A stretch of DNA of 64,000 bases from Bdellovibrionales bacterium (GCA_964230645.1 CAXRHT010000001.1:896001-960000); one strand, 5' to 3'. Shown: positions 11,261-44,307, counted from the first letter of the stretch. Translations and numbers: made by a program. Notes: a model not told the origin generated them from the sequence alone.

Positions 11261-11340
<80 letters not shown>

Positions 11341-11694: not shown

Positions 11695-11901
11695 ATGGAA
11701 ACTTTAGCTCTACAAAAGAAAAACAAGAGGGACTCAACTTTAACCGTTAGACTCCCCGAAAACATCTACACTAAAGTAAAACGAATTGCGAAAAATCTTA
11801 ATCGTAGCCAATCAGAGATTGTTGAACTTGGAATACTGTTGGTCGATAAAGAGTTCCAAAAAAAGTTTGGAAACAAAAAAAGAGAAAAAGGCTCCAAATG
11901 A
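11695..11901 (+). CDS. Ribbon-helix-helix (CopG/Arc-like) DNA-binding protein
   Basis: STLTVRLPENIYTKVKRIA..NRSQSEIVELGI strand-helix-helix pattern; AAGGAGG RBS; ATGA overlap with the next gene. Confidence 0.8.
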   Translation: METLALQKKNKRDSTLTVRLPENIYTKVKRIAKNLNRSQSEIVELGILLVDKEFQKKFGNKKREKGSK

Positions 11902-13451: not shown

Positions 13452-14436
13452 CAGCCTAATAATACCGTGCCCATTACAACCAGGTACTGAGATAGAATGT
13501 CCAGAGGAAGCCAAAGAATATCTTGCTGAATACCTCGAAAGCGTTTCTTCTTCGATTGAAGAAGAATGCCTCTCTGCCTCAATGTTAATGTCAGCTACAT
13601 ACGCTGACTTCATTCTAAATTCTAAGATTACAGAAAACTGGTTAGATATTTTTGAATCTCAATTACTTGATGGAGATAGTACTCCAGTCGAGTACACAGA
13701 ATGCTTTGGAAAGCAGCTGTATAAATTCAATTGCTGGAAACAAACGACCGTCCATTCAAATTATGTCTGGTGGTGGCTCAGCTCAACACTTGGAAACGAT
13801 ATAACAGAGAAAGTATTGGACAACCTCACTACGTTCAAACAGGGCTCAGGTTGGTTCTTTAATAAAGAGGTCAGCTGCACAAACCCTAGAACAAGAATGA
13901 AAACAGAACTATTGATGAATTTGTCACTGACAGCTGAAATTGCAAAGGCCTCTGATACTCAAAGAACACTTATTGCAAACCTGGAAAGCACAGCCTCTTC
14001 AGTGCCAAATCTAGGATTTTTAGGAGCAGAGTATTATAGGGCAAAATGCCTATCAATGGAGAATGAACAGTTTCAAGCCAACGATTTAGAGGCACTTTTT
14101 GATGCATGCTCCACGCCTATTGGCTTCAGTGATTTTAATGTAACATCAAAGAAAGATGATTACATGGGAACAGCTAAAAGGGTTGGTAGGGACGCAGCAA
14201 TAATGTCGCCAATAATCAATCTTTATGCACATGAACTAAGCCCCCTCGTCAATGATGAAACAAAGACCAAAATTCTAGTGGGTGTCAAAAGTGCTATGAG
14301 GTTTTTGGAAGATAACCCTCTAAATTTACCAGGATACACAATAAGGGACACAGGTTTTTTATTCGGAAGTGGCGTAACCCCTAACGAAGTAATTAGCTCA
14401 ATTTTTTTGTTAAACCTTCAACATCATGGATTATAG
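13435..14436 (+). CDS. Hypothetical protein, possible alpha/alpha-barrel (prenyltransferase/squalene-cyclase-like)
   Basis: Likely ATG at 13435 overlapping the upstream stop; helical pattern with KQGSGWF and ACSTPIGF motifs. The CDS is secure; the fold is inference. Confidence 0.55.
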   Translation: MTSVINSLIIPCPLQPGTEIECPEEAKEYLAEYLESVSSSIEEECLSASMLMSATYADFILNSKITENWLDIFESQLLDGDSTPVEYTECFGKQLYKFNCWKQTTVHSNYVWWWLSSTLGNDITEKVLDNLTTFKQGSGWFFNKEVSCTNPRTRMKTELLMNLSLTAEIAKASDTQRTLIANLESTASSVPNLGFLGAEYYRAKCLSMENEQFQANDLEALFDACSTPIGFSDFNVTSKKDDYMGTAKRVGRDAAIMSPIINLYAHELSPLVNDETKTKILVGVKSAMRFLEDNPLNLPGYTIRDTGFLFGSGVTPNEVISSIFLLNLQHHGL

Positions 14437-14456
14437 ACCAATAAAAGGAGAACTCG

Positions 14457-16058
14457 TTGAAACACAACTATGATCAACAGCTTGAATTTGACGAAGTCAA
14501 TAGCGGAGAAGACAAAAATATGCTCTTTCCTAAAACCTATATACAGCCATTTGAGCGAGTTTTAGCAGAGCTCGAATTAAATACTTTTGTAGATAAAAAA
14601 TTCGACCTAGCCAGCTATGACATCAGCTCCGACGAACTAAAGCCAATTAGCCCTCCCCCAAAGCACAATGAATTCCTAAACAGAACTGCTTACTGGGAAA
14701 GGATAGGCCCCGGAAAACAACACCTATCACTTCAAGTAAAAGTTGAAGCCACTCAAGCGCTTAATATCAAGTCAAAACTACATCGCGCAAGAAGGCTTCG
14801 GTACGGACCCCATGATTTCCACGAATACCGCGGCAAGTTTTTTCCACAGCTTGTCAGGTCAATATTGAATATTACCCATGTTGAAGTCGGTGCTACTGTC
14901 CTTGATCCATTTAGTGGGTCCGGGACAACTCTTGCTGAGGCCACCTCAACGGGCATGAAAACAATTGGTACCGACATGAATCCCCTATCTGTACTCGTAT
15001 CAAAAGCTAAGACTGAAATTTATCAACTTGGACATAGGCAATTAGAACGACTGATTAAAAAACTTATATCGAATGTTAATAAATACGACGGGACACAAGA
15101 AGACCTTAAAAAAGTCTGGTCCCAGACTGATATAGAGTACCTTGAGAGATGGTTTCCAAGGCATACGTTGAATGAACTAGCTTTTGTCAGAAGAACTTGT
15201 GACAAAATTAGCAACAAGGACAACGTCGTAATCTTTCATGCCTGGCTCAGTAATATTATCAGAGGCGTCTCATGGCAAAAGGCCGAAGACCTTCGCGTTC
15301 GAAAAGAAATTCGAAAAATCCCAAAAAACGAAGCAATAAGGAATTTCTTGTCTGAAGTTGAAAAGCAAACATCCCGAGTATTGCCTTACCTTGAAGTATT
15401 AGAACAACACGAGCCTAGTTTCCATACAGCAAAGGTATTGCTGTCAGACGCAAGAAGCCTCACAACCTCACATCCAGACCTTTTGGGAAGAGTTGACTCA
15501 ATTATTACATCGCCACCATACGCAACAGCGCTCCCTTATCTAGACACAGATAGATTAAGCCTGATAGTTCTGGGGCTACTTCCTAGGAACCAGCATAGAA
15601 GTCAAGAAACCGACATGATTGGTACTCGGGAAGTAACTGAGCGAAAGCGAAAAGACCTATGGGATACTTATCTTTCGCGAAAAAATGAGCTCCCAAACTC
15701 AATTACCACCGTCATTGACCTGGTTGCGAAGCATAACCATCAGGATGAGGTAGGATTCCGCCGCAGAAACCTACCTGCCTTATTAGGTAAGTATTTTCTC
15801 GACATGGCTGATGTATTAAACGAGTCAAAGGCCGCCCTGAGACCCAAAGGATATGCTACATACGTGGTAGGAAACAATAGCACCAATCTTAGCGGCCAAA
15901 AAACTATTATTCCTACAGATGAGTTCCTATGGGAGCTAGGAGAACATATAGGATTAAAACAAGTCAGAGCGATCAATATGGAACTACTCACCTCTAGAGA
16001 TATATTCAAAGAAAACAGGGGCTCTAGCGAAACAATTTTAATTTTTCAAAAGGATTAA
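14457..16058 (+). CDS. Amino-DNA methyltransferase (likely N4-cytosine) with N-terminal extension
   Basis: HDFHEYRGKFFPQ, VLDPFSGSGTT (SAM motif I), IITSPPY (motif IV); AAGGAG RBS before TTG. Confidence 0.88.
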   Translation: MKHNYDQQLEFDEVNSGEDKNMLFPKTYIQPFERVLAELELNTFVDKKFDLASYDISSDELKPISPPPKHNEFLNRTAYWERIGPGKQHLSLQVKVEATQALNIKSKLHRARRLRYGPHDFHEYRGKFFPQLVRSILNITHVEVGATVLDPFSGSGTTLAEATSTGMKTIGTDMNPLSVLVSKAKTEIYQLGHRQLERLIKKLISNVNKYDGTQEDLKKVWSQTDIEYLERWFPRHTLNELAFVRRTCDKISNKDNVVIFHAWLSNIIRGVSWQKAEDLRVRKEIRKIPKNEAIRNFLSEVEKQTSRVLPYLEVLEQHEPSFHTAKVLLSDARSLTTSHPDLLGRVDSIITSPPYATALPYLDTDRLSLIVLGLLPRNQHRSQETDMIGTREVTERKRKDLWDTYLSRKNELPNSITTVIDLVAKHNHQDEVGFRRRNLPALLGKYFLDMADVLNESKAALRPKGYATYVVGNNSTNLSGQKTIIPTDEFLWELGEHIGLKQVRAINMELLTSRDIFKENRGSSETILIFQKD

Positions 16059-16060
16059 GA

Positions 16061-17215
16061 ATGGAAATCAGAACATCTATATACACAGACAAAGATTTAC
16101 CTGAATTGCGAAAAGTAGGCATTGATTGGGATTTCTATGATGCTAAGACAAACAGCTACTTGCACAAACTCCATCCATACCCAGCTAAATTCATCCCCCA
16201 GATACCGCACAAAGCTATAAGTGAATGGAGCAAAAAAGGCGACATGATTCTTGACCCCTTTTGCGGCTCAGGGACAACCCTGCTAGAGGCCTCGCTACTG
16301 ATGAGGCCGTCCTTGGGTGTAGACAACAACGGTGTCGCTTGCCTTGTTAGCAAAGTGAAAACTACTAAATACTCGAAAAATGACATAAAGTGCTTCTCAG
16401 AGCTTCTTGAATCAATAAAAGAATCTAAGTCAAAAAAGAAGAACCCATCCACAGCGCCAAGTTATAAAAATATGGACTATTGGTTTGAAGAGGACGCAAT
16501 AGGTGATTTGTCTAAGATAAAATCTTCTATCTTAGAATTTGAGAACAAGAAAGTTGAAGATCTAGGCATGGCAATAATGTCCTCGATAATTGTGAGAACA
16601 TCCAAGCAGGATAGTGACACCAGATACTCCAGAATTGATCGCGAATATTCTAAAGGCGATGCTTTTGATTGGTTCCTGAGAAAAGCGAAGACTATCACAA
16701 AGGATCTCTTAGAGTACGTTGATGTAAAAAGAGAAAAATCTAAGGTCAAGCTTGGAGACTCCAGAAAGTTAAAGTTTATTGGGGACAACAGCGTTGATCT
16801 CATTGTAACGTCTCCTCCGTATTTGAATGCCTACGACTACCATAAATATCATAGACATAGACTTCATTGGATAAATGCTGATGTCCCCTTTGCCCGGGAT
16901 CTAGAGATTGGCAAACATGATACCTTTACCCGACCCAAAGCAACTCCTGATCGATATTTCCATGATATGAAGGAATGTTTTACGGAATGGTCTCGCGTTC
17001 TTAAAAAAGGCAAAAAGGCATTTGTTGTCGTCGGCGATGCAATAGTTAGCAAGCAACCAGTCCCTGTTGCTGATCTACTAATTGAAGTCGGACTTGAAAG
17101 CGGATTACTTATTGAACAGCATTACGTCAGGGAGATCAGGAAAGATAAAAAAGCCTTTAACCCCTCTAATTCAAGACTTGGACAAGAGCATTTACTTTTA
17201 TTCAAGAACAAATAG
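16061..17215 (+). CDS. Amino-DNA methyltransferase (likely N4-cytosine)
   Basis: HKLHPYPAKFIPQ, ILDPFCGSGTT, IVTSPPY, WSRVLKKGK. Confidence 0.9.
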   Translation: MEIRTSIYTDKDLPELRKVGIDWDFYDAKTNSYLHKLHPYPAKFIPQIPHKAISEWSKKGDMILDPFCGSGTTLLEASLLMRPSLGVDNNGVACLVSKVKTTKYSKNDIKCFSELLESIKESKSKKKNPSTAPSYKNMDYWFEEDAIGDLSKIKSSILEFENKKVEDLGMAIMSSIIVRTSKQDSDTRYSRIDREYSKGDAFDWFLRKAKTITKDLLEYVDVKREKSKVKLGDSRKLKFIGDNSVDLIVTSPPYLNAYDYHKYHRHRLHWINADVPFARDLEIGKHDTFTRPKATPDRYFHDMKECFTEWSRVLKKGKKAFVVVGDAIVSKQPVPVADLLIEVGLESGLLIEQHYVREIRKDKKAFNPSNSRLGQEHLLLFKNK

Positions 17216-29284: not shown

Positions 29285-30619
29285 CTATTTTGGCCGCCCC
29301 CAATCCTTCAACACCCCTCGATAGATCTGGTTTGGGGTTCCAAATAAAATAGTACTTTGGCCAGTAACTACCTCTCTTACGTTTCGCCCACCATTTACCT
29401 GGGAGGCCCTTTGTGGCGATAATAAACCAGATAGAAAGCTTCTAGCGGATAGGAATCGGTATCTCTGCCCTCCTGACTCTACAGGCGTTAAAAGTGGTGT
29501 GAGTTCGAAAAATAAACTCATCCTGCGATCTTCGCTGCGAATAACAGCTTCTGTGTCGACATCAATTGTTTTCACCTGCCGTTTATTGAACCCATGGTTT
29601 GGATTGATCCAGAGGCCTTGCCCGGTTCCTTTTGAGACGTCGATGCTATTACTAACAATCACTATGGGGAGATCGAGTCTGCAACCAGAACTGTCTTCAA
29701 TCTTCGCTCCTGACATTCTTCGAAAGACTGGTGTTGATAGCTTGAAGTGACATTTCCACTTTTCATTTTTTCCAAGATTATTTAGGTTTTCACTGACCCA
29801 CTGGCTTCCGGATCGATAGTGGAGGAACTGAAAGCTGGCATCTGGACGCAGTCCCCTTAGTGTGTACACCACAAAAGAGAGATCTTTTGGTGAAGGAGTT
29901 TGATTTCCAGGTAGTGCTAAAGAAACGTCTCTGACCAGATTGTGTGGGCGTCGCTCGACATTTTCAATTCCTGCTGGGTGGCGGGCAAAAACCCAGTACT
30001 CCAGGTGGTTAAGAGAAGGCACGCCAAAACGCTGAGAGGTTGAATAAGAGCGGCTTGAAAAATCAAAAGCTGAACGTAGGGGCAAATCATAATGAAGCGC
30101 TGGTGGGTTGTTACTAGCAGACCGATCGACGTAAAGGGCTGGATTGAACTGATCAACTATAAGGTGATTAGGTGCTGACTGAGAGACCTTTGTTTTAACC
30201 CCTTGGTAATCGTTGCGTCCGGCCTGCTCGGGATTATACTTATTAGCGTGATAGCGATCTCTAAGAGCACCTAACATCCCTTTGCCGTAACCAGGCTGCC
30301 CAACTTCGTAGTGCTTTGGAAGGCCTCGAAAGTTTGTTAAGACGGCGCTCCACAGATATCCTCCCCCCTCTTCGTTAAAGCCAAAATCCACGAATTTATT
30401 AGGATAGCCTGGCATTCGGCTTCGAACTCTGTGGGTGACCCAGTCATGCTTTGGGCTGTTCTTCAATAGAGATGCGGGCTCAAGATAGGGATTGGTTTCA
30501 TTATGGAGCTCCCCTTCTTGCCAGGTCAGGGGTCCTATTGGGACTTGAGCTGAGGTCAATTGAGAAGTGAGTATTGTGGTGATTGCTATAAGTATTGAGG
30601 TGATGAGTTGGTTTTTCAT
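29285..30619 (-). CDS. Secreted hypothetical protein
   Basis: Signal peptide; AGGAG RBS; 444-aa ORF 12 bp downstream of the esterase gene. Confidence 0.75.
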   Translation of the reverse strand: MKNQLITSILIAITTILTSQLTSAQVPIGPLTWQEGELHNETNPYLEPASLLKNSPKHDWVTHRVRSRMPGYPNKFVDFGFNEEGGGYLWSAVLTNFRGLPKHYEVGQPGYGKGMLGALRDRYHANKYNPEQAGRNDYQGVKTKVSQSAPNHLIVDQFNPALYVDRSASNNPPALHYDLPLRSAFDFSSRSYSTSQRFGVPSLNHLEYWVFARHPAGIENVERRPHNLVRDVSLALPGNQTPSPKDLSFVVYTLRGLRPDASFQFLHYRSGSQWVSENLNNLGKNEKWKCHFKLSTPVFRRMSGAKIEDSSGCRLDLPIVIVSNSIDVSKGTGQGLWINPNHGFNKRQVKTIDVDTEAVIRSEDRRMSLFFELTPLLTPVESGGQRYRFLSARSFLSGLLSPQRASQVNGGRNVREVVTGQSTILFGTPNQIYRGVLKDWGRPK

Positions 30620-30631
30620 TGCCTTACTCCT

Positions 30632-31672
30632 TTATTGGTAATCTTTTAATTTGAGAAAGTACCGATGTCCTAGAAGTCTTAGGCCCTCATTTGAAAAGTG
30701 ATAATTGTCCCCACGGCCTCCGCTCCCATCATTCAAATCTTCATTTGAGGGAAGCCCTTGGGTTCTCACGACACTAACTGAGTTGAAGCTTTCTTCCATG
30801 TCAAAAAAGATTCTCTTTATTCTCTGTTTGGCTCTTGAGATAGAAAGAGGAGCTTGATTAGGGCGATGCCAGGCTTGCCATTGATCGACTGGCTGTCCAA
30901 TGAGAAATGCAAAACACTCCGAGCTATTCTCACAAAATCGCCTTCGAAGGTTTAAATGAAGATTTAAAAGCCTATTGCGATAAACATTGCTATGAAATTC
31001 AAAGAATCTGTTCGGGTTCAAGGGTTCATGATCAACAAGGTGCCAAGAGTTACCCCCTGACATCGCCATGATATCGGCCTCACCCTGTTGCCACAAAACA
31101 GCCACCAATTTGTTCTCGGGGTTTTGCCTAAGAGCTTTGTGGATTCTCGTGATCATATTTGCGTAAAGGTAACGACTGTCGTTTCGACCAGATAAGTTTT
31201 GGACCAAGTGATCCCAAGCCAAAATGGAAGTGGCTCCCTTTGCTACCGGAACTATGAGGAGTTTGCGGCCCGATTGAAGAAGATGCCTTGAGTAGCGTCT
31301 AGCAAAGGACTGTCCGAATCCATGATTGCCATCATCTTGATAGGAGACGTGCTGAAGCTCTCTAGTACCTCCATCAATAATATTTATGCTTCTATCAGCG
31401 TTTAGATTTCGTCCCACCTGGCAAATATTACTTAAAACACTGGGCTGGGTGTAATAAGAATTTTCAAAGACAGAGCCTCGACCTGCGCCCACCGCGTTGG
31501 ATTGTCCAGCGATCACTACAATATCGTAGCCGCCAGTGAAGTTCTCATCACAGTTTTGATTCGCAAAAGCATTTATGGAACCTAATTGTAAAAAGACTAG
31601 GAGCAAGGTGCTTTTTTTAATGAAACAAGACCTAACTGGTCCAAGACAAAAATAGATAAACGTTTTAATCAT
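30632..31672 (-). CDS. Secreted SGNH sialate O-acetylesterase (SASA) family protein
   Basis: IAGQSNAVG, VAKGATSI, WQQGEAD, DNYHF. Confidence 0.85.
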   Translation of the reverse strand: MIKTFIYFCLGPVRSCFIKKSTLLLVFLQLGSINAFANQNCDENFTGGYDIVVIAGQSNAVGAGRGSVFENSYYTQPSVLSNICQVGRNLNADRSINIIDGGTRELQHVSYQDDGNHGFGQSFARRYSRHLLQSGRKLLIVPVAKGATSILAWDHLVQNLSGRNDSRYLYANMITRIHKALRQNPENKLVAVLWQQGEADIMAMSGGNSWHLVDHEPLNPNRFFEFHSNVYRNRLLNLHLNLRRRFCENSSECFAFLIGQPVDQWQAWHRPNQAPLSISRAKQRIKRIFFDMEESFNSVSVVRTQGLPSNEDLNDGSGGRGDNYHFSNEGLRLLGHRYFLKLKDYQ

Positions 31673-34537: not shown

Positions 34538-35284
34538 TTAGTCGATACAGAGTGCCTCTACAACATCGGAAGGACGCACCTCATTGGTGACTGTGGAGAT
34601 TTCAAACTGAAGAAAATCTATTCCATCAGGGGTGATTTGCTCCTCGTCCCAAGTTTTGGAAACATCGACATCAAGAACTAGGTCTTCTTTATGATTACCA
34701 ATACTGGCTTTATTTTCCTCTTTAATAGACAAATAATCACCTCTCACCCATAAAAAGGCCCTTCCAAAACCCACAAGTTCAAGTTGGTTTGTGCCTTGAT
34801 AAAGGACCTCGCCCTCACGAATGGTGTGAATTTCTCGGGAGAGAATTTGATTGGTCTCTCTATTGAAAAGGTTTTTGTAAACAACCACCTGATAATTACC
34901 TTCAAAAAGTTGAAGTTCAAAGCTTTGAATTTCACCGAGGTCGACAGCTTGGTCCTGAGGCTCAATTTCGACCTCACTGACCCACCCTTGCATAGGCTCT
35001 GTGCTTTCATCTGATAGGCACTGGGGGTTTAAAGGGTCTATTTGAAGCTCTTTAAAATAAGACCTCGTAGAATTTTTATCGTTAAGTCCACTGATCGTGT
35101 CGTGGACTCTTGCCTCAGGATTGCCCTCTTTACCAGGGACATACCAGTGGTATCTGTAGATTGGCGCGATTCCACAACATATGGGCTCTACCTGGGCCTC
35201 GACTAATTCGGGGCCTGAGTCCTCGTTACTACAAGCTGAGAGAGCGCAGGCTAGGATTATCATTGTTATTTTTAAATATTTCAT
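34538..35284 (-). CDS. Lipoprotein, unknown function
   Basis: LSAC lipobox; last gene of the 38685->34538 operon. Confidence 0.75.
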   Translation of the reverse strand: MKYLKITMIILACALSACSNEDSGPELVEAQVEPICCGIAPIYRYHWYVPGKEGNPEARVHDTISGLNDKNSTRSYFKELQIDPLNPQCLSDESTEPMQGWVSEVEIEPQDQAVDLGEIQSFELQLFEGNYQVVVYKNLFNRETNQILSREIHTIREGEVLYQGTNQLELVGFGRAFLWVRGDYLSIKEENKASIGNHKEDLVLDVDVSKTWDEEQITPDGIDFLQFEISTVTNEVRPSDVVEALCID

Positions 35285-35313
35285 TTCATACCTCTATTTT
35301 TTTATAGTCGTAA

Positions 35314-36561
35314 TTAGTTCTGTACCATCTCTAAGAGTTGTTGCTCATAAAGCTCATAGCGCATTCTGGAAGGCCATTTGATTTCGGTCAGAGAGTCTAC
35401 ATTGATGGTCGCAATACTTGGAAGTTGGCAATCTTCTGTTGTTTGGGCATCTAAACATTTATTGTATAAACTCTCCACCTCTTTAATGGCTTCTCCAATA
35501 TTTTCAAAACGAGTGTCCATTTTGTCGACATACCTCTCACAGCGTTCGATCTGGTTATTTGAGCAAAAGGGATAAATATGTTGATCCCAACTTGTGACAA
35601 AACGGCTCAGACGTTTCCTTGCGCCTGAAAGGCGACGGAAAATATTGATCAACTCATGAAGGGTTCCCCTTTGATGCTCCACCATAAGGCGATTGTCTGT
35701 ACTTCCAACCCCTGGATAAGGTTCTGTGACCCATTTGACCACAACTCGGTCGCTGGTCTCCATGGCGTCTACGAGTTTGCTCACATTGTCTCTAAAGGTT
35801 TGAACATCAGAGGGGCTATTGACCATGGGGCTTAGATTTTTAAAAGGAGCGGTTCCCCAGGCATTCATCTCGACACTGAGGCTTCCTAATTTTGAAAGCT
35901 CCGAGGCTACCTGCATAAAACCAACGGAGGCGTCCGCACTCAATCCTTCAACTCCGTAGGAGGCTTCGGCGGTCGCAACAATTTTTGAGTAATTGTAAAT
36001 GGAGAGCTTTTCAGTGGCTAAAAGAATTCGGATCCCCTGGCCTTTGACGTATCCGGCGACAAATTGCTTTCCACATCTTCTAAAAAACTCTTGGGGGTTT
36101 TCTTGATAAAGTTTTTTAAATTCCGGTTTTAGCTCCACATCAGTGGCGTACCATTTGCCATATTCAGCACTAGCTTCAATACCCACCATGGCGCGGTCAC
36201 TTTCAAGAGAAAAGCGAGACTCCTCACCGTAGCTGACATTGCCACTAAAGCCTGCGTAACTTCCTCCAGCTGAGACTTGGGTGTTAGTGTATTTATCAAC
36301 ATCTCTATAGGAGGTGATCATCTCAACACTCATTTCTAGAGATTTTGGAGGGACATCACTTTCGCTTGTGTATTGGCTGTATTCATCCTCATCGGTAAAG
36401 ACTTCTGAGTTGTAGCTGACACACTTTTCGTAAACGTTGTCAGTCACTGGATCAACTCCGGCGCCTAAACGAAGTTGAAGGTTTTTATGCTCGGGTATGA
36501 TGGCGGCCTGCCCTAGTTGGGCGAACAATAAGGCCCCGGTAATTATGATTGTTTTATACAT
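35314..36561 (-). CDS. Secreted MACPF-like protein
   Basis: Signal peptide; LGAGVD..CV; FFRRCGKQFVAGYVKG resembles the MACPF signature; two Ser/Gly/Ala amphipathic segments; C-terminal helical Cys region. Confidence 0.6.
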   Translation of the reverse strand: MYKTIIITGALLFAQLGQAAIIPEHKNLQLRLGAGVDPVTDNVYEKCVSYNSEVFTDEDEYSQYTSESDVPPKSLEMSVEMITSYRDVDKYTNTQVSAGGSYAGFSGNVSYGEESRFSLESDRAMVGIEASAEYGKWYATDVELKPEFKKLYQENPQEFFRRCGKQFVAGYVKGQGIRILLATEKLSIYNYSKIVATAEASYGVEGLSADASVGFMQVASELSKLGSLSVEMNAWGTAPFKNLSPMVNSPSDVQTFRDNVSKLVDAMETSDRVVVKWVTEPYPGVGSTDNRLMVEHQRGTLHELINIFRRLSGARKRLSRFVTSWDQHIYPFCSNNQIERCERYVDKMDTRFENIGEAIKEVESLYNKCLDAQTTEDCQLPSIATINVDSLTEIKWPSRMRYELYEQQLLEMVQN

Positions 36562-36589
36562 TTTTTAACTCCTCTTTTTTAAAATTGTT

Positions 36590-38029
36590 TTAGTGATTGT
36601 TGGCAATCCACTTAAGTAACTCGTAGACGAGTCCTGGGGATGGTTCTCTTGTGGCTTCTTCTAGCAAGGCGACAAAGTCCTCGCTCTCGAGATCACGTGT
36701 ATCAGGAAATTTATCGAGCCTACCATAGCAGTAATAGTCATCGTACTGACCATCTAGGAAATCTAAAACGCGATTGACGCCGGTCTCGTTGTTGACGGAG
36801 AGCTTGGCCCAGCGAATTTGGAATTTTTCACCACTGCCTTTATCGGAGAAAAGTTGTGTGTCACGATCAAGACTGTCTTGTAAAATCCCTCTTAAAAACC
36901 ATTCACGCTCTGTGGGACTATTTTTTAGTCTCCCAAGTTCCTTACGAATCTCTTTAGCGTATCTCTTTAACTTGCGACGATCACAAATATAAGGAACGTG
37001 GTAGATTTCATAGCGACCAGAAAGACTGGCTTGGGTACTGTAGAATTGGTAGGCGTTAATTTGCTGCCAATTATACCCCCCCACACCTTTAAGATTGTAT
37101 TTGCTGCTAGGTGCATTCATCAAATCGAAGATATATTGGTAAGGAATGGCATAGTAACCAGGAAGGTTTTGATCGGCGACCTTTAAGCGCATTTTTTCGA
37201 GCAAAGCCTTTTCTTGCTCATTGGGCTCTTTAGTCAGCATTCGAAGCTTTGAGGGAGAGTTCCAGCTATTTCTTACGATGATTGCACCTGGCCCGGCAGG
37301 ATAGTCGTGTGACTTATAAAGAGAGTCGTCAAATCCAACCACAGCCACACTGTGGTCTATCGCTTCTTCAAAGTTTGGTTGATCATAGTCAGCTAGGAGA
37401 TGCTCTATTTTTTCTTTGCTGTAACTGTTGTTCAACAAACCTGTGTAATTATTAAACTGCGAGAAAAGATAGCTGTGCATGGATAGTGTTAAGGCTTTCT
37501 TTTCTCGGATGAGTTGTTTTAGATGCTCAAGACTCCCCGGAATTCGGTAGCTTGTGAGATTAGGCCTAATTCTTTCAAAACCGTAGAAGGTTTCCTTATA
37601 ACCAAAGGCTCCGGAGCCTTTTGGGTAAGAAGGATCAATGTTGGCGGCGTAGCTTGGGCCAGGGCGATCTCCTAATTCATCTCCAGGAACCCCCTGAGAG
37701 TCCTCAGGCCACATATAGTGAGGTGCGATCCCGGGCATGCTTGCTCGCAAAACATTGTCATCGTCGTTGATCTCCTGGCCTTCCCATCCAGGGTTAGTAA
37801 CATTGTTCCAGGTCGTGGTATGGCGATAAAAAGTACTGAGCTTTAAAGGTAGACCGAGTTCTGCAAAATAAAACTCCAAAGCGGTAGTTTCAGATTCGGC
37901 TTGGCAAGACCCCACATTTTGCTGGTCCATACCATTGAGTCTTATTGGAGGTACAGAAGGATAAACTTCTTCCGCTTGTGCTGAGTTACAAAAAGATAAT
38001 ATTAGTAGAGTAAAGATTAAATTTTTCAT
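36590..38029 (-). CDS. Secreted papain-like (C1) cysteine peptidase
   Basis: DQQNVGSC, DHSVAVVGFDD and IVRNSW catalytic motifs; signal peptide from ATG 38029. Confidence 0.85.
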   Translation of the reverse strand: MKNLIFTLLILSFCNSAQAEEVYPSVPPIRLNGMDQQNVGSCQAESETTALEFYFAELGLPLKLSTFYRHTTTWNNVTNPGWEGQEINDDDNVLRASMPGIAPHYMWPEDSQGVPGDELGDRPGPSYAANIDPSYPKGSGAFGYKETFYGFERIRPNLTSYRIPGSLEHLKQLIREKKALTLSMHSYLFSQFNNYTGLLNNSYSKEKIEHLLADYDQPNFEEAIDHSVAVVGFDDSLYKSHDYPAGPGAIIVRNSWNSPSKLRMLTKEPNEQEKALLEKMRLKVADQNLPGYYAIPYQYIFDLMNAPSSKYNLKGVGGYNWQQINAYQFYSTQASLSGRYEIYHVPYICDRRKLKRYAKEIRKELGRLKNSPTEREWFLRGILQDSLDRDTQLFSDKGSGEKFQIRWAKLSVNNETGVNRVLDFLDGQYDDYYCYGRLDKFPDTRDLESEDFVALLEEATREPSPGLVYELLKWIANNH

Positions 38030-38034
38030 AGCGA

Positions 38035-38685
38035 TCAATCCAAAATGAAGTCGAGGATCCAGTCCTCATAAGCTTGAGTTTTTTCAACAAAAGTTCCGCT
38101 CTGAGAGTTTTCGATATTATCTCCAGGACGAATAAGGCTTGGTTCGTAGTAAGCAACAGTTACATGATCTCCCATTTCGTGAATAGAAGGGGCTTTTGAA
38201 TCAACAGTTGTTACAAACTTTGGATCAAAACAGGTTTGAAAGTTTTCAGAGAGTAATTCTTTATTGGAATCTTCAAGAGTGAGCTTTTCAGGCCCTTGGG
38301 GAAACTGCCCCTCGTCTCTCCATTCTTTTCTTGTCTGCATAACAGCAGCAAAGGCCCCCTGACGATTGGACTCAATTGTAGCTTTATGAAGTTTCTTTAT
38401 ATTTTGTCCAATCAGGATAAGGTCGCTATAGCCTTCAATGGAACTTTGGCCAAGATCTGGATAGTTTTCCATGATATCAACATACTTATCCTTCCAATCA
38501 AGGTAAGTAACCCCCATACAACTAATAATAATATCGGCCTGATGGTTCACAATGATCTGTGACTTATAGGATTCGTATTCTCTTATAATATCGTTCATTC
38601 CTTTTTTGGCGTAGGTGCGGGCTTGGGCCTGAGAGGCTGCGAGTAAACCTAATAGAAAAAAGGTCTGTAAAGTTTTCTTAAACAT
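38035..38685 (-). CDS. Secreted hypothetical protein
   Basis: Signal peptide (AQA cleavage), GGAG RBS; first gene of the operon. Confidence 0.75.
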   Translation of the reverse strand: MFKKTLQTFFLLGLLAASQAQARTYAKKGMNDIIREYESYKSQIIVNHQADIIISCMGVTYLDWKDKYVDIMENYPDLGQSSIEGYSDLILIGQNIKKLHKATIESNRQGAFAAVMQTRKEWRDEGQFPQGPEKLTLEDSNKELLSENFQTCFDPKFVTTVDSKAPSIHEMGDHVTVAYYEPSLIRPGDNIENSQSGTFVEKTQAYEDWILDFILD

Positions 38686-38884: not shown

Positions 38885-39028
38885 CTGAACGGGCGGAAAA
38901 CACGGCCAGATCGGAATAACCGGGGGCTTGAGGTTGGAACAGCCCTTGCTCTTAGAAGGACACGTGATTCTGCAAAACAGAAAAATTAAAAACAATGTTC
39001 AAACAATTAAACTTTGAGGTTAGATAAA

Positions 39029-39805
39029 ATGTTCAATAAATACTTTTTTACTATTTTATATATACTGCTCGCCAGTCACTCGAGCTCAGCCAAACTTGAT
39101 CTAAACACTTCCGCTCTTGGATGTCCCTTTTTACCTGCTGAATATTATTTAAATCAGATTGAGGTTGCCAATCGACGGATCCCAGAACTCGAATTGGAGA
39201 GATCTCAGACAAATGAAAAGATTAAGGCCAATTCGCTGGCTTTACAGAGCTTGAATTCACAAAAAACTGGTTTGCAAGCCGACATACAAATTTATGAAAA
39301 ACTTCTTCATATGATTCAAGAAGAGATCAACCGAGTCTATTACTCAACAAGGCTTCTGCAAGACATGTCTGAGGAGTGTCAGGAATGTTTAACCTTAGGA
39401 GAGGTTTTCGAATATGTTCAACTAGAATTGCCTGAGGAGTATTGGTCTGTTTTAAAACCTTTAAAGGACTACCTCGCTATTAGAGATGAGATGGTAGAAG
39501 CAGAAAGTAAAAGACTGATTAAGGCTATTGAGACCTTCAGCTCCGAGGTGATGATCCATGATCTTGAGGAGGACATACTTTTATTGACCGAAACTATTGA
39601 AGATAAGAAACAGAAATATGATGAAAGCCTCCGAGACGTTAATGAGCTTCAACTTAGCTTAGAAAGTAGCAATGAAAGACTCAACGAGGTGACTAAAGAA
39701 ATGGCTGACCACAGATCAAGGCTCAGGGAAAATAAAGTCATCGTCGAAAGGCGCGCTTTTGCTGAGAACATGTGCTTTCAACCTCACCCAGACTTTATGC
39801 ATTAA
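39029..39805 (+). CDS. Secreted coiled-coil protein with central CxxC (paralog of 40698..41441)
   Basis: GAGGT RBS before ATG 39029; signal peptide; heptads; ECQECLTL...ELPEEYW. Confidence 0.75.
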   Translation: MFNKYFFTILYILLASHSSSAKLDLNTSALGCPFLPAEYYLNQIEVANRRIPELELERSQTNEKIKANSLALQSLNSQKTGLQADIQIYEKLLHMIQEEINRVYYSTRLLQDMSEECQECLTLGEVFEYVQLELPEEYWSVLKPLKDYLAIRDEMVEAESKRLIKAIETFSSEVMIHDLEEDILLLTETIEDKKQKYDESLRDVNELQLSLESSNERLNEVTKEMADHRSRLRENKVIVERRAFAENMCFQPHPDFMH

Positions 39806-39815
39806 GGTGGTTCAT

Positions 39816-40682
39816 ATGCGCTATTTATTTTTTACTATTATTTTACTTGCTCAAACCCTCCAGGCCCAAAATCCCTGTCAGCCAGTATTTTGTAGAGCTG
39901 AGGATATTTATTTTGACGCTTTGACGGATCAAAACCACTGCCAAATGGATAAAAGAGTTTCCTGTCAATTGACCAATTATGGTTATGAGATGGACAGACT
40001 CATTGCTCATGGTAACTCCAATTCTTATATCAAACAGAGGCTAAAAAACAAAAAAGGAGAGCTTGTCGATAACTTTGAGCTTAAGGGCTTACTCGATACA
40101 GCTGAACTTGATTATAACGATCATTGTAGCGATCACGTTTCAAGAAAAGAGTTTAAACTTTGCCAAGCCACGGTTCAGTACGCAGTGACCGTTTACAACA
40201 AGGCCTCAGACCTTTTTCGATCTCTGGAGCTCCCCTATTACTCTTCCATTGTCACCAACCAAGAGGTGGTCAGTCTTTACCAAATTTCTGAAAGCCATCA
40301 TAAAAGATCAGACTTCTTTAAGAGTCTTCAACTGGATATGAAAATTGGAGAAGATCTTGGATTATGGAAACTCTTAGAAATTATTAAAGAAGCCTCGCGA
40401 AACGAAAGAGCCAAATACTATATCTGTAATGATAGTCCTGGAAAAATGAAAACATTGATTGCTGATCAGAAATTACTTTTCTTATCCGGTGAAATCAAAA
40501 GAGATCCTACGCTTATTAAAAAAGCCATTGATAATCTTTCCAAAATTCAAAATGTGGGTAGAGTCTTTCAGAGAACCTGTGAAAATCCAGAAGTCGTTGA
40601 CTCTATTTTGCAGGAGACGATTCAGCTTAAAAATATCTGGGAAAACCACAACCTTATTCAAACTTCTAACCATCTTAAATAA
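39816..40682 (+). CDS. Secreted Cys-containing helical hypothetical protein
   Basis: AAGGTGG RBS before ATG 39816; signal peptide; eight Cys. Confidence 0.7.
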   Translation: MRYLFFTIILLAQTLQAQNPCQPVFCRAEDIYFDALTDQNHCQMDKRVSCQLTNYGYEMDRLIAHGNSNSYIKQRLKNKKGELVDNFELKGLLDTAELDYNDHCSDHVSRKEFKLCQATVQYAVTVYNKASDLFRSLELPYYSSIVTNQEVVSLYQISESHHKRSDFFKSLQLDMKIGEDLGLWKLLEIIKEASRNERAKYYICNDSPGKMKTLIADQKLLFLSGEIKRDPTLIKKAIDNLSKIQNVGRVFQRTCENPEVVDSILQETIQLKNIWENHNLIQTSNHLK

Positions 40683-40697
40683 ACAAAGGAAATAAAA

Positions 40698-41441
40698 ATG
40701 CTTAAAACAATCACTCAAACAATTATTTGTACGATTCTTATCTTGCAAGCTCCGCTCGCCTCCTCTTGTCCTTTTCCTTCGGCGGCCACAGTGTACGATA
40801 TGATTCATCACTTTGAGAAAAAGGTCCATACGCTCAATCAACGAAAAGCGACACTCATTGGGCAAATAACGACATTGGCGCCTCGGCTACAAATAGAAAA
40901 ATCAAGAGCTCAAACTCTTGCAACCGATGCCTCAAACTATGCAAAGCTTGTTGAAGCCAATCAGGCTGCGATCAACCAAGCCTACTACATATCTGAGCTC
41001 TTAAAAGAAGTGTCGGTGGAATGCTCTGAATGCCTTACACTTGAGGAACTTTTTGATTACGTGCAAGTTGAGTTGCCCGAGGAATACTGGCCCATTTTAA
41101 GTCCTTTAAAAAGCTACCTGGAGGCTCTTGACGAAAAAGCGGGAGCCGAGAAGCAAAGGCTCACTCAAGCTCTAAAAACTTTTAGCTCTGATATTTTGGT
41201 AGAAGAGCTTGAAACTGAGCTTATTTCTTTAATTGAAATTGAAGAGGCAAAACGGACCGCCTATGAGAAGGCTAGTGCAAATGCTACCAACCTTCAGGCT
41301 TCTTACGATAGCGCCAACCAAAACCTGAGGTCAGTCACTCGTCAACTGGAAGAGGCCTCTGCTGAATTGGTGATTTGGCAAGGCTCCACTGGCCAAACTA
41401 GAGAGTCACAATGTTCCGCGGACGGTACCATTGTTAAATAG
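40698..41441 (+). CDS. Secreted coiled-coil protein with central CxxC (paralog of 39029..39805)
   Basis: AAGGA RBS; signal peptide; ECSECLTL...ELPEEYW. Confidence 0.75.
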   Translation: MLKTITQTIICTILILQAPLASSCPFPSAATVYDMIHHFEKKVHTLNQRKATLIGQITTLAPRLQIEKSRAQTLATDASNYAKLVEANQAAINQAYYISELLKEVSVECSECLTLEELFDYVQVELPEEYWPILSPLKSYLEALDEKAGAEKQRLTQALKTFSSDILVEELETELISLIEIEEAKRTAYEKASANATNLQASYDSANQNLRSVTRQLEEASAELVIWQGSTGQTRESQCSADGTIVK

Positions 41442-41447
41442 AGATAG

Positions 41448-41477
41448 AAAGGGAGGCTAGTGGAGCCTCCCCTTTTT
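41448..41477 (+). terminator. Intrinsic terminator
   Basis: GGGAGGCT-AGTGG-AGCCTCCC followed by CTTTTT. Confidence 0.75.
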
Positions 41478-41737
41478 CGAACTTCATGAATCCTCCACTC
41501 ACTCAGAACGAATGTACTCTTTTGTACGGATAATTTCTCAACTTAAAACATTCCACCTAGAAACAAGACCATTTACCTATTTCTAGTCCCAGAGTGTCCG
41601 CAAATCAGTGGATTTCTCTTCTGAAGTCTTGAAATAATATTCATTTATGATTCATCCTGGGACCTTTGCTTTTTAAACTGGAACCCAACACACTGCCTGC
41701 TACAATTATAGGATATGTCAATTTTAAGGGGGGTGGT

Positions 41738-43237
41738 GTGAATAAGCATTTCTATTCATGTTCGATAAAAACTTTAATGTCGGGACTTTTAGTCTCTTGT
41801 TTTCTCTCAATGATTTCCAGTCAGTCTTGGGCTTGGGAACCTGAGGGAGCTACCGTTAGAGATCCCGTGCGTGAACAAGTACGCTATCATACGGAAACTC
41901 GGCCGGCCGTTGAGAGAAATAGGAAGGAAACTAAGAGTGGAGTTTCCAATATGCGAAACCTTCCCACGAAACAGGTCGACAGGAACAATTTCAATAGTCG
42001 CAGTAAGGGAAATAAAGACGACGATGATGATGGGCGAACAAGAAACCCTCATGCATCCTCTGTTCCTGCAGAGAAGTTTAATGACCCATGGGCCCCCTAT
42101 AGAAATTACTCAGCGGGAGAATTTGGGGATGTTGGCGACTACGAGACTCACACCTCAGCGATCCAAAGGGCTATTGCTGTTGCTGATTCGTGCGAAACTT
42201 GCGCAAAAAGCAGTGGGTCCGATGACGATGCGGCTGTCGCCGCTAGACGAGCGGTTATAAACTCCATTTATTCCCAATCGGTAAAAGATGAATATGATAA
42301 CCGCGGAGTGCCTGAAGGTCGAAGAAATATTCCAGCAGGTCCATTAGCGGCAGCGGCTAAATATCGACACGGTCAAGTACCGATGGAAGATGAGCAAGGT
42401 AACATCAAACGCGACGACAATGGTGACCCCATCTATTTGAATGATCAAGAAAGGGCAATTGACGAACTTATTCTTGATGGTGTTGTAACTTACTACAATC
42501 CGGGCCAAGTGCCAATTCCACAAAGCACCTACGAGGAAACGACCACCACTCAAAAGTTAGGCCTTCAGGAAACACTGGTTTTAGTTGCTCCAGGTAGCAT
42601 CGAATTTGGGACAGTTTTGGAGGCCTCGGGCGTGCAATCTGACCTACCCCCTGAAGAGATGTTTGGGCTTGCTATGAACGCTCCCATTTTCCCGGGAGGA
42701 ATCGTGTTAATGAATAACCATTTTGACCCTTCAAGTAATCGCGTGATTATGGTGGATGGTAAAGAAGTCGTCGTTCCAACTATTGACTCGGAAAATGAAC
42801 TGCAGGTCGGCGGAGTCGTACATGAAATGTCTCACGCAGGCGAAATTGCGTTAATTAACCTTTCCAATGATTATTCAAACAGAGGAAAAGACCTGCCTCA
42901 GAATGTACGAGAGGGTAGCGATACTGCTAGGGCCTTAATTGGATCACCGGGGAGTGAGAGATTGCTTGTCGACGTTAACGAATATCTAGAAGACCATGAA
43001 GAGCGAGTAAGTGTTAATGACGAATACGTTAACCAATGGACTGAGGTCATGGCCTATAGCAACCAATATCCTGACAAAGAGCGCAACGTTGAACTTGTTG
43101 GGCGAACTTTGCAAGAGGGAATGGAATTAGACGAAGCCACAGCTCAGAGAGTCGCCAGGGACCTCGTTGAGAGTGAAACATACAAGGAAATTAGAAGACA
43201 ACTCGACGAAGCCGCCGATCACTTTTTGGAAAAATAA
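41738..43237 (+). CDS. Secreted protein with C-terminal HExxH zinc-peptidase-like motif
   Basis: Likely GTG at 41738; signal peptide (SWA/WEP); VVHEMSHAGE and a downstream TEVMAY. Confidence 0.6.
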   Translation: MNKHFYSCSIKTLMSGLLVSCFLSMISSQSWAWEPEGATVRDPVREQVRYHTETRPAVERNRKETKSGVSNMRNLPTKQVDRNNFNSRSKGNKDDDDDGRTRNPHASSVPAEKFNDPWAPYRNYSAGEFGDVGDYETHTSAIQRAIAVADSCETCAKSSGSDDDAAVAARRAVINSIYSQSVKDEYDNRGVPEGRRNIPAGPLAAAAKYRHGQVPMEDEQGNIKRDDNGDPIYLNDQERAIDELILDGVVTYYNPGQVPIPQSTYEETTTTQKLGLQETLVLVAPGSIEFGTVLEASGVQSDLPPEEMFGLAMNAPIFPGGIVLMNNHFDPSSNRVIMVDGKEVVVPTIDSENELQVGGVVHEMSHAGEIALINLSNDYSNRGKDLPQNVREGSDTARALIGSPGSERLLVDVNEYLEDHEERVSVNDEYVNQWTEVMAYSNQYPDKERNVELVGRTLQEGMELDEATAQRVARDLVESETYKEIRRQLDEAADHFLEK

Positions 43238-44307
43238 TGGAGATGAGGAAAATGAGTAAAAGAAAGACATTAACGATTTATGCATTATCACTTCCTGTTC
43301 TCGTATTGTTTTTTACAAACATGGGAGGGCGTTTACCAGGGGACTTAAAAGAGCCACCCAAAGTTGGGCTTGAGCCCCAGGAAATCGCTGATGAAATTCA
43401 GATGATCACTGAAAAAATTGAATCCGGTGAGTACGGGGAAGAAGGTGCTGAAGTAATGAAAGTTCATGTCAATAAAATGGCGAGCTTTCTTTCTAAGGAA
43501 ATCAAAGCCAAAAGGTGTAGCGATATAAGAGAGTACCTTCCTAAGCTCTACGCCGGTAAATATGTGATCTGGAGTACGCCTGAAGGAGAGGTCGTATACT
43601 GCCAAAGCTCAGTAGCTCTCATTAACAAAGCCTATGAAGAGATTCGTGGTAGGAAGCCAAACGACAATGGTCTCTCCAAATGGCTTGGAGTCATCGGCCT
43701 TCAAGGACATTTGGCTGCGATTGCTGGAATTGCTGAAGTGAAACAAAGTAAAGAAAACCCTCTATCGGATTCAGAGCTTGTTGAAGCTCTTTTTCGAGTG
43801 TTCCTTGACGAGCAGCCTTCTTCTCAAGCTATCAACCAATGGGTGAACCACTTGAAAAATGTGGGACTGAGCCAATTGGTCAACGATTTAGGCACTACCC
43901 CTGAAGCCTTGAAGAATTATTCTAGCTTTTTTCATGGGATCAAAGGGAATGTGAGCAAAATAAAGGTGCGCTCTGGTAAATTGGAATTTAAGGGCTGGGC
44001 CTGCTTTTCTCATTCATCAGCACCTGTGACCGTGGAAATTTACTCGGTAGACCGCAAACGCCACACCAGGAAGAAGTTTATTGGCAAAGTGACAACAAGT
44101 CGTGCCAGCAGTGACGGTGTTAATAATGCCTGTGGAACTCAGGGACAAAAACATCACTTTAAACTCCGAATTTCTCAGCGAGACTTTAAACAACGAAGCC
44201 GTGTGGCTCGTTTTTATGCTGTGGACGAGTTTAATGGTGGAAAAGTCTTACTCAATCCTAATAAAGAGATTCATATTCATGAGTACAGACGCGATGATGA
44301 TGATTAA
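43237..44307 (+). CDS. Exported protein with DUF4214-like repeats and C-terminal Ig-like (GWAC) domain
   Basis: AYEEIRGRKP..GL..W and LVEALFRVFLDEQPS..INQW repeats; KGWAC..VEIY; TAATG coupling to the upstream gene. Confidence 0.65.
   Translation: MEMRKMSKRKTLTIYALSLPVLVLFFTNMGGRLPGDLKEPPKVGLEPQEIADEIQMITEKIESGEYGEEGAEVMKVHVNKMASFLSKEIKAKRCSDIREYLPKLYAGKYVIWSTPEGEVVYCQSSVALINKAYEEIRGRKPNDNGLSKWLGVIGLQGHLAAIAGIAEVKQSKENPLSDSELVEALFRVFLDEQPSSQAINQWVNHLKNVGLSQLVNDLGTTPEALKNYSSFFHGIKGNVSKIKVRSGKLEFKGWACFSHSSAPVTVEIYSVDRKRHTRKKFIGKVTTSRASSDGVNNACGTQGQKHHFKLRISQRDFKQRSRVARFYAVDEFNGGKVLLNPNKEIHIHEYRRDDDD

Follow-up and report, generated by a model that had tools for sequence, protein, structure and literature searches.

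A conserved cassette of three genes (g1–g3), with a fourth co-oriented gene (g4) beside it, is present at 34538..38685 on the minus strand of a 64,000-nt stretch of DNA from a Bdellovibrionales bacterium (the window). The cassette encodes a predicted MACPF/CDC-fold protein (g3), its own papain-like protease (g2), a further conserved protein (g1) and, usually, though not in the window, a lipoprotein with a His-Glu-x-x-His (HExxH) motif; the MACPF/CDC-fold family of g3 is undescribed. Based on the sequences and the predicted structures, g1–g3 are tentatively proposed to be a rare accessory secreted weapon, in which the protease g2 may activate the pore-former g3. The cassette appears to come with one or two proteases of its own, and this in the Bdellovibrionota, a phylum best known for predators. 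The original prediction had described a secreted operon of four co-oriented genes with short gaps, all with export signals. The open reading frames were confirmed, with gaps of 5, 28 and 29 bp, and by eye all four proteins have export-like N-termini, with a basic start, a hydrophobic stretch and then A-Q-A or G-Q-A in g1–g3 and a lipobox (L-S-A-C18) in g4.

Conservation of the operon, suggested as a check, holds for the protease, the MACPF-fold gene and g1, and fails for the lipoprotein g4. Among 401 genomes of the phylum, the protease profile is matched in nine and the wide MACPF-fold profile in 76. Thirteen protease loci were compared (the window, L002–L005, L083–L088, L117 and L119; L081 and L082 duplicate L002 and L003, and L115, a weak fragment, was excluded). 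In 10 of these 13 loci there is a MACPF-fold gene no more than 4.5 kb from the protease, the other three being on contigs of 3.2–5.4 kb that are cut by their ends, and each of the 10 loci has one MACPF-fold gene only. g1 is present in 10 of the 13, the HExxH protein in 10, and g4 in one. The linkage spans at least five families, and it holds in two gene orders and with three clades of MACPF genes. When 30 MACPF cores were placed in a tree, the 10 that are linked to the protease separated into three supported clades, and they were not united in any of 200 bootstrap trees; that the linkage persists through changes of gene order and of MACPF clade supports the proposal. Within the close family of g3, all five loci for which DNA is available adjoin the protease, and six of 20 proteins are on contigs equal in size to that of a protease homologue, two of these pairs having adjacent accession or locus numbers. 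Adjacent accessions of a g3-family protein and a protease are found in Pseudobacteriovorax antillogorgiicola. No copy of g2 or g3 was found in the 40 nearest genomes, 12 of which are of the same genus.

The commonest gene order is g1, HExxH lipoprotein, protease, MACPF (L005, L085, L086 and L087; L084 is cut before g1). The second is MACPF with leucine-rich repeats (LRRs), g1, HExxH, protease (L003, L004 and L083), and in L002 the order is protease, g1 fusion, MACPF. Variants of the cassette genes were also seen. A g1-like domain is fused behind another domain in L002:1619-2881 and L121:1067-2083, and genome G408 has two g1-fusion genes, of which the first adjoins the protease and the second, at the edge of a contig, an HExxH gene. 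There are two tandem protease genes in L117, a duplicated HExxH gene in L086:3882-7241, and a longer, 569-residue protease followed by a Hint-domain gene in L088:899-3659. In L087:7441-9278 (genome G264) the HExxH gene is short (324 residues) and the N-terminal half of the protease is missing, the catalytic Cys with it, a pattern that a single deletion across both genes would give.

The g3 product, previously described as a MACPF-like protein of 415 residues, is predicted to have a MACPF/CDC fold, supported by its model, Foldseek, VIA structure comparison and a profile match. A search of representative proteins with g3 returned 310 proteins at E ≤0.001, 20 of which form a tight group at ≤1e-30; this group and one more homologue form the close-family alignment (21 rows), and 150 rows form the wide alignment, A4, from which one 769-residue match was left out. 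In the AF2 model built on A4 (predicted local distance difference test, pLDDT, 87.3; predicted template-modelling score 0.85) there is a bent four-stranded core sheet of MACPF/CDC type (strands 74–81, 125–144, 166–183 and 228–235). The structure comparison with MACPF/CDC proteins that had been advised was run with Foldseek; all 44 rows listed among the top 50 are of MACPF/CDC type, counting the Aeg-L pore, and include stonustoxin (the best match, E 5.9e-7), Aeg-L, Plu-MACPF, C8, C9, perforin, Mpf2Ba1 and CDCs. VIA gave Z 8.9 with stonustoxin (root-mean-square deviation (rmsd) 6.0, 289 aligned), 8.9 with Aeg-L, 8.5 with 6nal (rmsd 4.2, 225 aligned) and 8.0 with activated CDCL; generic helical bundles also reach Z 8.0 against the C-terminal part of g3. 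From sequence alone, the A4 profile matches the Aeg-L pore protein (E 5.9e-8) and stonustoxin beta (9e-5) in the PDB, the close-family profile has no significant PDB sequence match, and the sole match of the single g3 sequence is Mpf2Ba1 (E 0.13). Atlas points to MACPF/cytolysin clusters, with a recognition value under the threshold of the tool, and is a lead only.

The positions of the two transmembrane hairpin regions (TMH1 and TMH2) of MACPF proteins, between core strands 1–2 and 3–4, are defined in PMC2954219. In g3 the TMH1 insert is 43 residues long in all 20 complete close-family members and the TMH2 insert 44 residues in 19 of 21. Three motifs that had been pointed out in g3 are located at residues 159–174, 96–111 and 196–215, and the latter two, described as small-residue amphipathic segments like TMH regions, are indeed inside the TMH1 and TMH2 inserts. 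These two segments contain all 14 of the windows richest in Gly, Ala and Ser (of 386) and several of the 25 windows with the strongest alternating hydrophobicity (of 386), and are therefore beyond chance. The family-averaged 180-degree moment is 0.48–0.63 at residues 93–102, 192–204 and 207–215, and weaker (0.31) at 104–112, the overall mean being 0.19 (standard deviation 0.16). Hydrophobicity alternates in the inserts although the model draws helix or loop there. Together, the fixed insert lengths and the conserved alternation indicate selection for what would be membrane-spanning hairpins.

The strict MACPF signature (Y/W-G-T/S-H-F/Y-X6-GG) is found in none of the 21 close-family or 150 wide-family rows. 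A degenerate form, C-G-x-x-hydrophobic-x6-G, is present in 20 of 21 and 69 of 150 respectively, and the signature of Bth-MACPF deviates likewise (PMC2954219). The Pfam MACPF model (PF01823) matches none of the 21 close-family members at E 0.1, nor g3 at E 1, and no family in Pfam or NCBIfam passes for g3. Membership of the narrow MACPF family (PF01823) is rejected, because neither the signature nor the Pfam model is matched; the predicted fold matches, and g3 is therefore placed in the fold-defined MACPF/CDC superfamily. Just ahead of core strand 1 is a variable loop (residues 55–75), a candidate activation loop from its position when compared with the activation loop of CDCL (PMC11952106). 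The C-terminal helical bundle aligns to the helical region after the stonustoxin MACPF domain (model residues 18–415 against 4wvm_B 4–381), and Cys47 and Cys163 co-occur in 127 of 150 rows.

A papain-like protease with intact catalytic Gln, Cys, His and Asn had been proposed for g2. Q36, C42, H226 and N254 are all present, and are kept in 24, 24, 26 and 26 of 26 family rows, the two rows missing Gln and Cys being gaps in N-terminal fragments. The 26 homologues have 28–41 % identity. The model (pLDDT 87.1) has a predicted papain fold over residues 19–329, with structural matches to the C1 family (comparison with Cwp84: Z 11.6, rmsd 3.9, 212 aligned). The catalytic Cys is at residue 38–58 in 23 of the 26 rows and at 84 in one, and is absent in the two fragments; because it is so near to the N-terminus there is no room for a prodomain in the family. 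The score of g2 against Peptidase C1 (PF00112) is 13 bits, below the cut-off of 20.7, and 11 of 26 family members match PF00112 at E ≤0.01; no family in Pfam or NCBIfam passes for g2. Deep branches of the protease tree are weak. A scan with a specific protease motif gave no match in viral contigs. In metagenomes one motif gave 0 stretches; a different motif gave nine stretches at eight loci, which are two clear family genes, one weak fragment and five chance matches. These metagenome scans were thin. In the genome collection at least 79 loci were matched. For 75 of the 79 listed the match covers just a portion of the catalytic domain, and these were excluded as generic papain-like genes, so that the range of the family outside the Bdellovibrionota is poorly sampled. 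The length of 479 residues is counted from an ATG, and an in-frame TTG lies nine bases upstream.

Table 1. Position of the genes g1–g4 in the window, and of features within g2 and g3.
Feature	Coordinates	Strand	Description
g1	38035..38685	-	216 residues, signal-like N-terminus, conserved cassette member; invariant Cys56, Trp64, Cys152
g2	36590..38029	-	479-residue papain-like (clan CA, C1-like) cysteine protease, signal-like N-terminus, no N-terminal prodomain
g3	35314..36561	-	415 residues, signal-like N-terminus, predicted MACPF/CDC fold and C-terminal helical bundle
g4	34538..35284	-	248-residue predicted lipoprotein, co-oriented orphan, outside conserved cassette
g2 catalytic domain	37043..37972	-	Residues 20–329
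g2 Gln36	37922-37924	-	Catalytic set
g2 Cys42	37904-37906	-	Catalytic set
g2 His226	37352-37354	-	Catalytic set
g2 Asn254	37268-37270	-	Catalytic set
g2 C-terminal extension	36593..37042	-	Residues 330–479, family-conserved, Cys349 and Cys434
g3 TMH1 insert	36190..36318	-	Residues 82–124, between core strands 1 and 2
g3 TMH2 insert	35881..36012	-	Residues 184–227, between core strands 3 and 4
g3 degenerate MACPF signature	36034..36075	-	Residues 163–176, C-G-x-x-F-x6-G-Q-G
g3 variable loop	36337..36399	-	Residues 55–75, 16–23 residues, just ahead of core strand 1
g3 C-terminal helical bundle	35320..35691	-	Residues 291–414; conserved Cys333, 341, 369, 378

The remaining cassette genes are less easily assigned. 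Searched as a single sequence, g1 matches four other protease loci (E 4e-12 to 5e-4); it has no match in Pfam, NCBIfam or Atlas and nothing credible in a PDB sequence search. The g1 profile is matched in seven of the 401 phylum genomes, all of them protease carriers, and the HExxH profile in eight; both profiles were built partly from those genomes, so that the counts indicate rarity and are not independent discovery. The HExxH lipoprotein is the usual fourth member of the cassette. The family has lipoprotein signals, an invariant His-Glu-x-x-His and a downstream Glu, the motif suggesting a zinc metallopeptidase, and a PDB sequence search returned nothing credible. The HExxH gene was not found in the host genome (G000; best profile E 0.024). 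As g1 has been kept here without it, g2 or g3 is suggested as the partner of g1. The lipoprotein g4 had been predicted to be an anchor or immunity factor, which its distribution does not bear out; it is absent from the 12 other protease loci, a protein search (which covered lengths 136–434 only) found no homologues, no Pfam or NCBIfam family passes, and a PDB sequence search gave nothing credible. As a conserved part of the cassette g4 is therefore rejected; it is a local addition, and may be a fast-changing immunity gene.

MACPF-fold genes away from this protease were examined at 21 loci (the 24 strongest wide-family loci that lack it, less four close kin of the others, plus a second gene in G000). 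At nine of the 21 there is a Hint-domain and/or a subtilase-like or metallopeptidase-like neighbour, several of the protease calls being weak Pfam scores, likeness to a scored neighbour or motifs seen by eye. Six have paired collagen-like genes (L106 by likeness to L104) and six have neighbours of neither type. A second type of cassette (L092, L093, L094, L096, L098, L099, L101 and L103) consists of a Hint-domain secreted protein, a lipoprotein, often a protein of 170–245 residues, and the MACPF-fold gene; the lipoprotein is subtilase-like in several loci and metzincin-like in L101. In a third type (L100 and L104–L108) two paralogous collagen-like secreted genes are followed by the MACPF-fold gene, and this type includes a 524-residue protein of Bdellovibrio bacteriovorus with the UniRef name 'MACPF domain-containing'. 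The second gene in G000 (C3:537135-540128; L090) encodes a MACPF-fold protein of about 997 residues with LRRs, downstream of a subtilase-like gene and a 223-residue gene. Forms of 940–1100 residues akin to it are found in many genomes of the phylum.

Under the proposal that g2 activates g3, Sec would export all of the proteins, and g3 would be released as a soluble, disulfide-braced monomer. This would be nicked by g2, most likely at the 55–75 loop or the 281–290 linker, with assistance from the HExxH lipoprotein in most relatives. A ring of g3 would then form and the two inserts would refold into hairpins, making a beta-barrel pore in the membrane of another cell, which could be a competitor, a prey cell or a grazer. 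Inside the producer, g1 would restrain or chaperone g2 or g3, restraint being proposed because g2 has no prodomain. This reading is favoured by the precedent of BSAP-1 and the CDCLs, which require a proteolytic cut close to the N-terminus to become active, by the predicted folds and constrained inserts, and by the Hint-domain or protease-like neighbours at nine of the 21 other MACPF loci. A number of observations weigh against it. The activating protease of BSAP-1 and BfCDCL sits on the target and not in the locus of the producer (PMC11169675 and PMC11901371 for CDCLs). There is no conserved sequence or cleavage motif in the candidate loop, and a disulfide between Cys47 and Cys163, if formed, would be likely to tether the N-terminal piece after a nick, unlike in CDCL. 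The partners of this single protease family belong to three divergent MACPF clades, and support in the protease tree is too low to reveal co-evolution. In G264 the MACPF gene is intact behind the half-deleted protease. Contig pairing to the protease is missing for 14 of 20 close-family g3 proteins, which may reflect short contigs and an incomplete list of homologues, and 12 of the 21 other MACPF loci have no recognised protease neighbour. In addition, the VIA Z scores of about 8–9 for g3 barely exceed the range that the tool calls common.

Perforin and granzyme are a pair of a pore-former and a delivered protease, and g3 might likewise make pores independently of g2, the proteases entering or digesting the opened cell. 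Such delivery or cocktail use is the main alternative to activation by g2, and less probable than it. In its favour, the enzymes beside MACPF-fold genes are varied (C1-like, HExxH, subtilase-like, metzincin-like and Hint-domain), there is no conserved cleavage site in the g3 family, the protease has a conserved 150-residue C-terminal extension, and the cassette exchanges MACPF clades. Against it, the HExxH and most of the subtilase-like partners carry lipoprotein signals and would be membrane-tethered rather than free cargo, and in those antibacterial MACPF/CDC-like toxins of bacteria that have been characterised, proteases serve as activators. An extended form, in which the Bdellovibrionota MACPF/CDC family would be modular perforin-plus-protease cassettes with exchangeable pore clades and enzymes, the pore delivering the prodomain-less protease and g1 acting as its separate inhibitor, is unlikely. 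If true, it would be a bacterial counterpart of perforin/granzyme and might explain the way in which these predators break into or kill other cells. It is less likely again that g3 is a non-lytic surface or envelope protein, acting in adhesion, as a channel in the producer's own envelope or as a scaffold for secreted proteases, like some MACPF-fold proteins that are not known to be lytic. The degenerate signature and absent Pfam MACPF match in all 21 close-family members would suit such a role, as would the LRR or collagen-like partners in relatives and the lack of an evident conserved immunity candidate, and Bth-MACPF, which lies among transport-like genes, has been proposed to act in cross-membrane transport (PMC2954219). 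However, the fixed insert lengths and conserved alternation suggest selection for membrane hairpins, the nearest solved relatives are pore-forming toxins, and the patchy distribution, with no copy in the 40 nearest genomes, suits a conflict system better than an envelope role.

Bacterial gasdermin–protease operons also pair a protease with a pore-former, as cytoplasmic proteins that act on the cell's own membrane. By analogy, g2 would sense attack and g3 would pore the producer's own membrane, and the pairing itself, the varied protease types and the patchy distribution are shared with such a self-killing defence. It is nevertheless very improbable here, because every member carries an export-like signal and conserved pairs of cysteines, whereas gasdermins act intracellularly (preprint 10.64898/2026.10.05.756811); by eye, export-like signals are present in all of g1–g4. 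The lack of any match to the protease motif in viral contigs also speaks against it, and there is no gasdermin among the g3 fold matches listed. Lastly, the genes might be functionally unconnected and lie side by side merely by chance, in an island of secreted genes. The window does have many secreted orphan genes, of which g4 would be one, and the loci are not independent, since block transfer would copy the linkage. For g1–g3 this explanation is largely refuted by the linkage, which is seen in 10 of the 13 loci and extends over at least five families, two orders and three MACPF clades, and it is the most remote of those considered.

The CDCL toxins of Bacteroidota (EaCDCL and BfCDCL; PDB 8g33 and 8g32) have the MACPF/CDC core in common with g3 (VIA Z 8.0 and 7.4), a Gram-negative producer and a lipoprotein gene in the operon, and the CDCL-S activation loop precedes the core sheet, where the g3 variable loop is similarly placed (PMC11952106). 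CDCLs, however, have two components and depend for activation on C11 proteases of the target, whereas the present cassette combines a single MACPF gene with a C1-like protease at one locus; the C-terminal domain of g3 is predicted to be helical, and the lipoprotein is not conserved. CDCL operons include a BcdI-like immunity lipoprotein; g4 is a lipoprotein and an orphan, and may yet be a fast-changing immunity gene. Membership of the CDCLs is rejected, as all 10 cassettes have one MACPF-fold gene and not adjacent large and small genes. The Bacteroidales toxins BSAP-1 to BSAP-4 are secreted single-chain MACPF proteins, as is predicted for g3, and in BSAP-1 the cleavage of an N-terminal domain brings about activation, the protein assembling into a beta-barrel of 13 subunits. 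They differ in being from another phylum; the signal of g3 is of Sec type and not that of a lipoprotein, and g3 does not match Pfam MACPF. The protease on which BSAP-1 depends is the fragipain of the target; the one linked here is papain-like, unlike the C11 surface protease that activates CDCL and BSAP toxins, and no receptor-orthologue gene was seen at the g1–g4 locus. Membership of the BSAPs is rejected, since the named relatives of g2 and g3 are Bdellovibrionota and not Bacteroidales.

Stonustoxin is an alpha/beta toxin with further C-terminal domains. Stonustoxin (4wvm) and Alternaria Aeg-L (9uj0) are the best structural matches of g3 and have a helical region directly after the MACPF domain, but they are eukaryotic two-component toxins with 10–14 % identity to g3 and no protease cassette; Aeg-S works with Aeg-L (PMC13341504). 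The bacterial MACPF proteins Mpf2Ba1, GNIP1Aa and Plu-MACPF, of Pseudomonadota, have the fold in common with g3. Prepores of Mpf2Ba1 form after propeptide cleavage (PMC11952106); it is insecticidal, and the second domain of Plu-MACPF is a beta-prism (PMC2954219) where that of g3 is predicted to be helical. Residues 19–329 of g2 have the predicted fold of Cwp84, xylellain and cathepsins (papain family C1; Z 11–11.6) and the same Gln/Cys/His/Asn set. In contrast to these, g2 has 14–20 % identity to them, no N-terminal prodomain, large inserts and an additional 150-residue C-terminal extension, and falls below the Pfam cut-off.

Protease-activated MACPF/CDC-like antibacterial toxins have been described from Bacteroidota, with the protease borrowed from the target (PMC11952106, PMC11169675, PMC11901371). 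In the full-text literature, with subscription journals mostly outside its scope, there was no publication on a MACPF-fold protein or on this cassette in Bdellovibrionota, and no mention of six accessions of relatives. The main text of a comparative genomic study of the phylum (PMC11656739) contains none of the words pore, perforin, cytolysin, papain and toxin. Single g3 relatives, two in all, were already under automatic MACPF-domain labels in UniRef. Since neither Pfam nor NCBIfam recognises the pore family, it is missed by annotation and comparative studies. That the C1-type cassette is so rare speaks for an accessory weapon rather than core invasion machinery. Because Bdellovibrio bacteriovorus, a species amenable to culture and mutation, has an annotated member of the wider family, it can be tested directly whether perforin-like pores act in predation or competition.

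The host genome (G000) is 3.78 Mb, with a completeness of 99.6 %, and the GC content of g1–g4 (0.40–0.45) is near to the genome-wide value of 0.43. A place in the Bdellovibrionales is inferred for the host, since the named relatives of g2 and g3 are Bdellovibrionota and genomes of the same order encode proteins with Bdellovibrio or Pseudobdellovibrionaceae names. Purine-rich stretches like ribosome-binding sites precede g1, g3 and g4. Promoter-like sites are at chance level (seven found, 8.4 expected) and a terminator scan was equally uninformative, so that co-transcription of g1–g4 is putative; no RNA dataset is among the listed runs that carry the window DNA. This DNA was located in four marine metagenome runs only, all from one study. 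Contigs from two marine runs match the stretch at ≥99 %, with no differing letters or joints, although these runs share a study with the possible source runs and are not independent confirmation. A clean empty site was not found, as the flanking kinase has differing neighbours in the two genomes of the same genus for which there is sufficient DNA.

Several other gene clusters are present in the window. Divergent from the cassette is a five-gene cluster (39014-44307, plus strand), mostly with export-like N-termini, which includes coiled-coil-like paralogues at 39014-39805 and 40698-41441 (E 1.5e-41), a gene with an HExxH motif (41666-43237, plus strand) and a DUF4214 gene (43237-44307, plus strand). 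Two export-like genes at 29285-31672 (minus strand) encode a 444-residue protein without a Pfam match and a SASA-family acetylesterase. A four-gene block at 11898-17215 (plus strand), with no obvious export signals, is near to a tRNA-Pro gene (C1:907261-907337, about 11261-11337 in the window). By eye, the last gene of the block has a DNA methyltransferase-like motif, and the block is possibly an integrated defence or mobile island.

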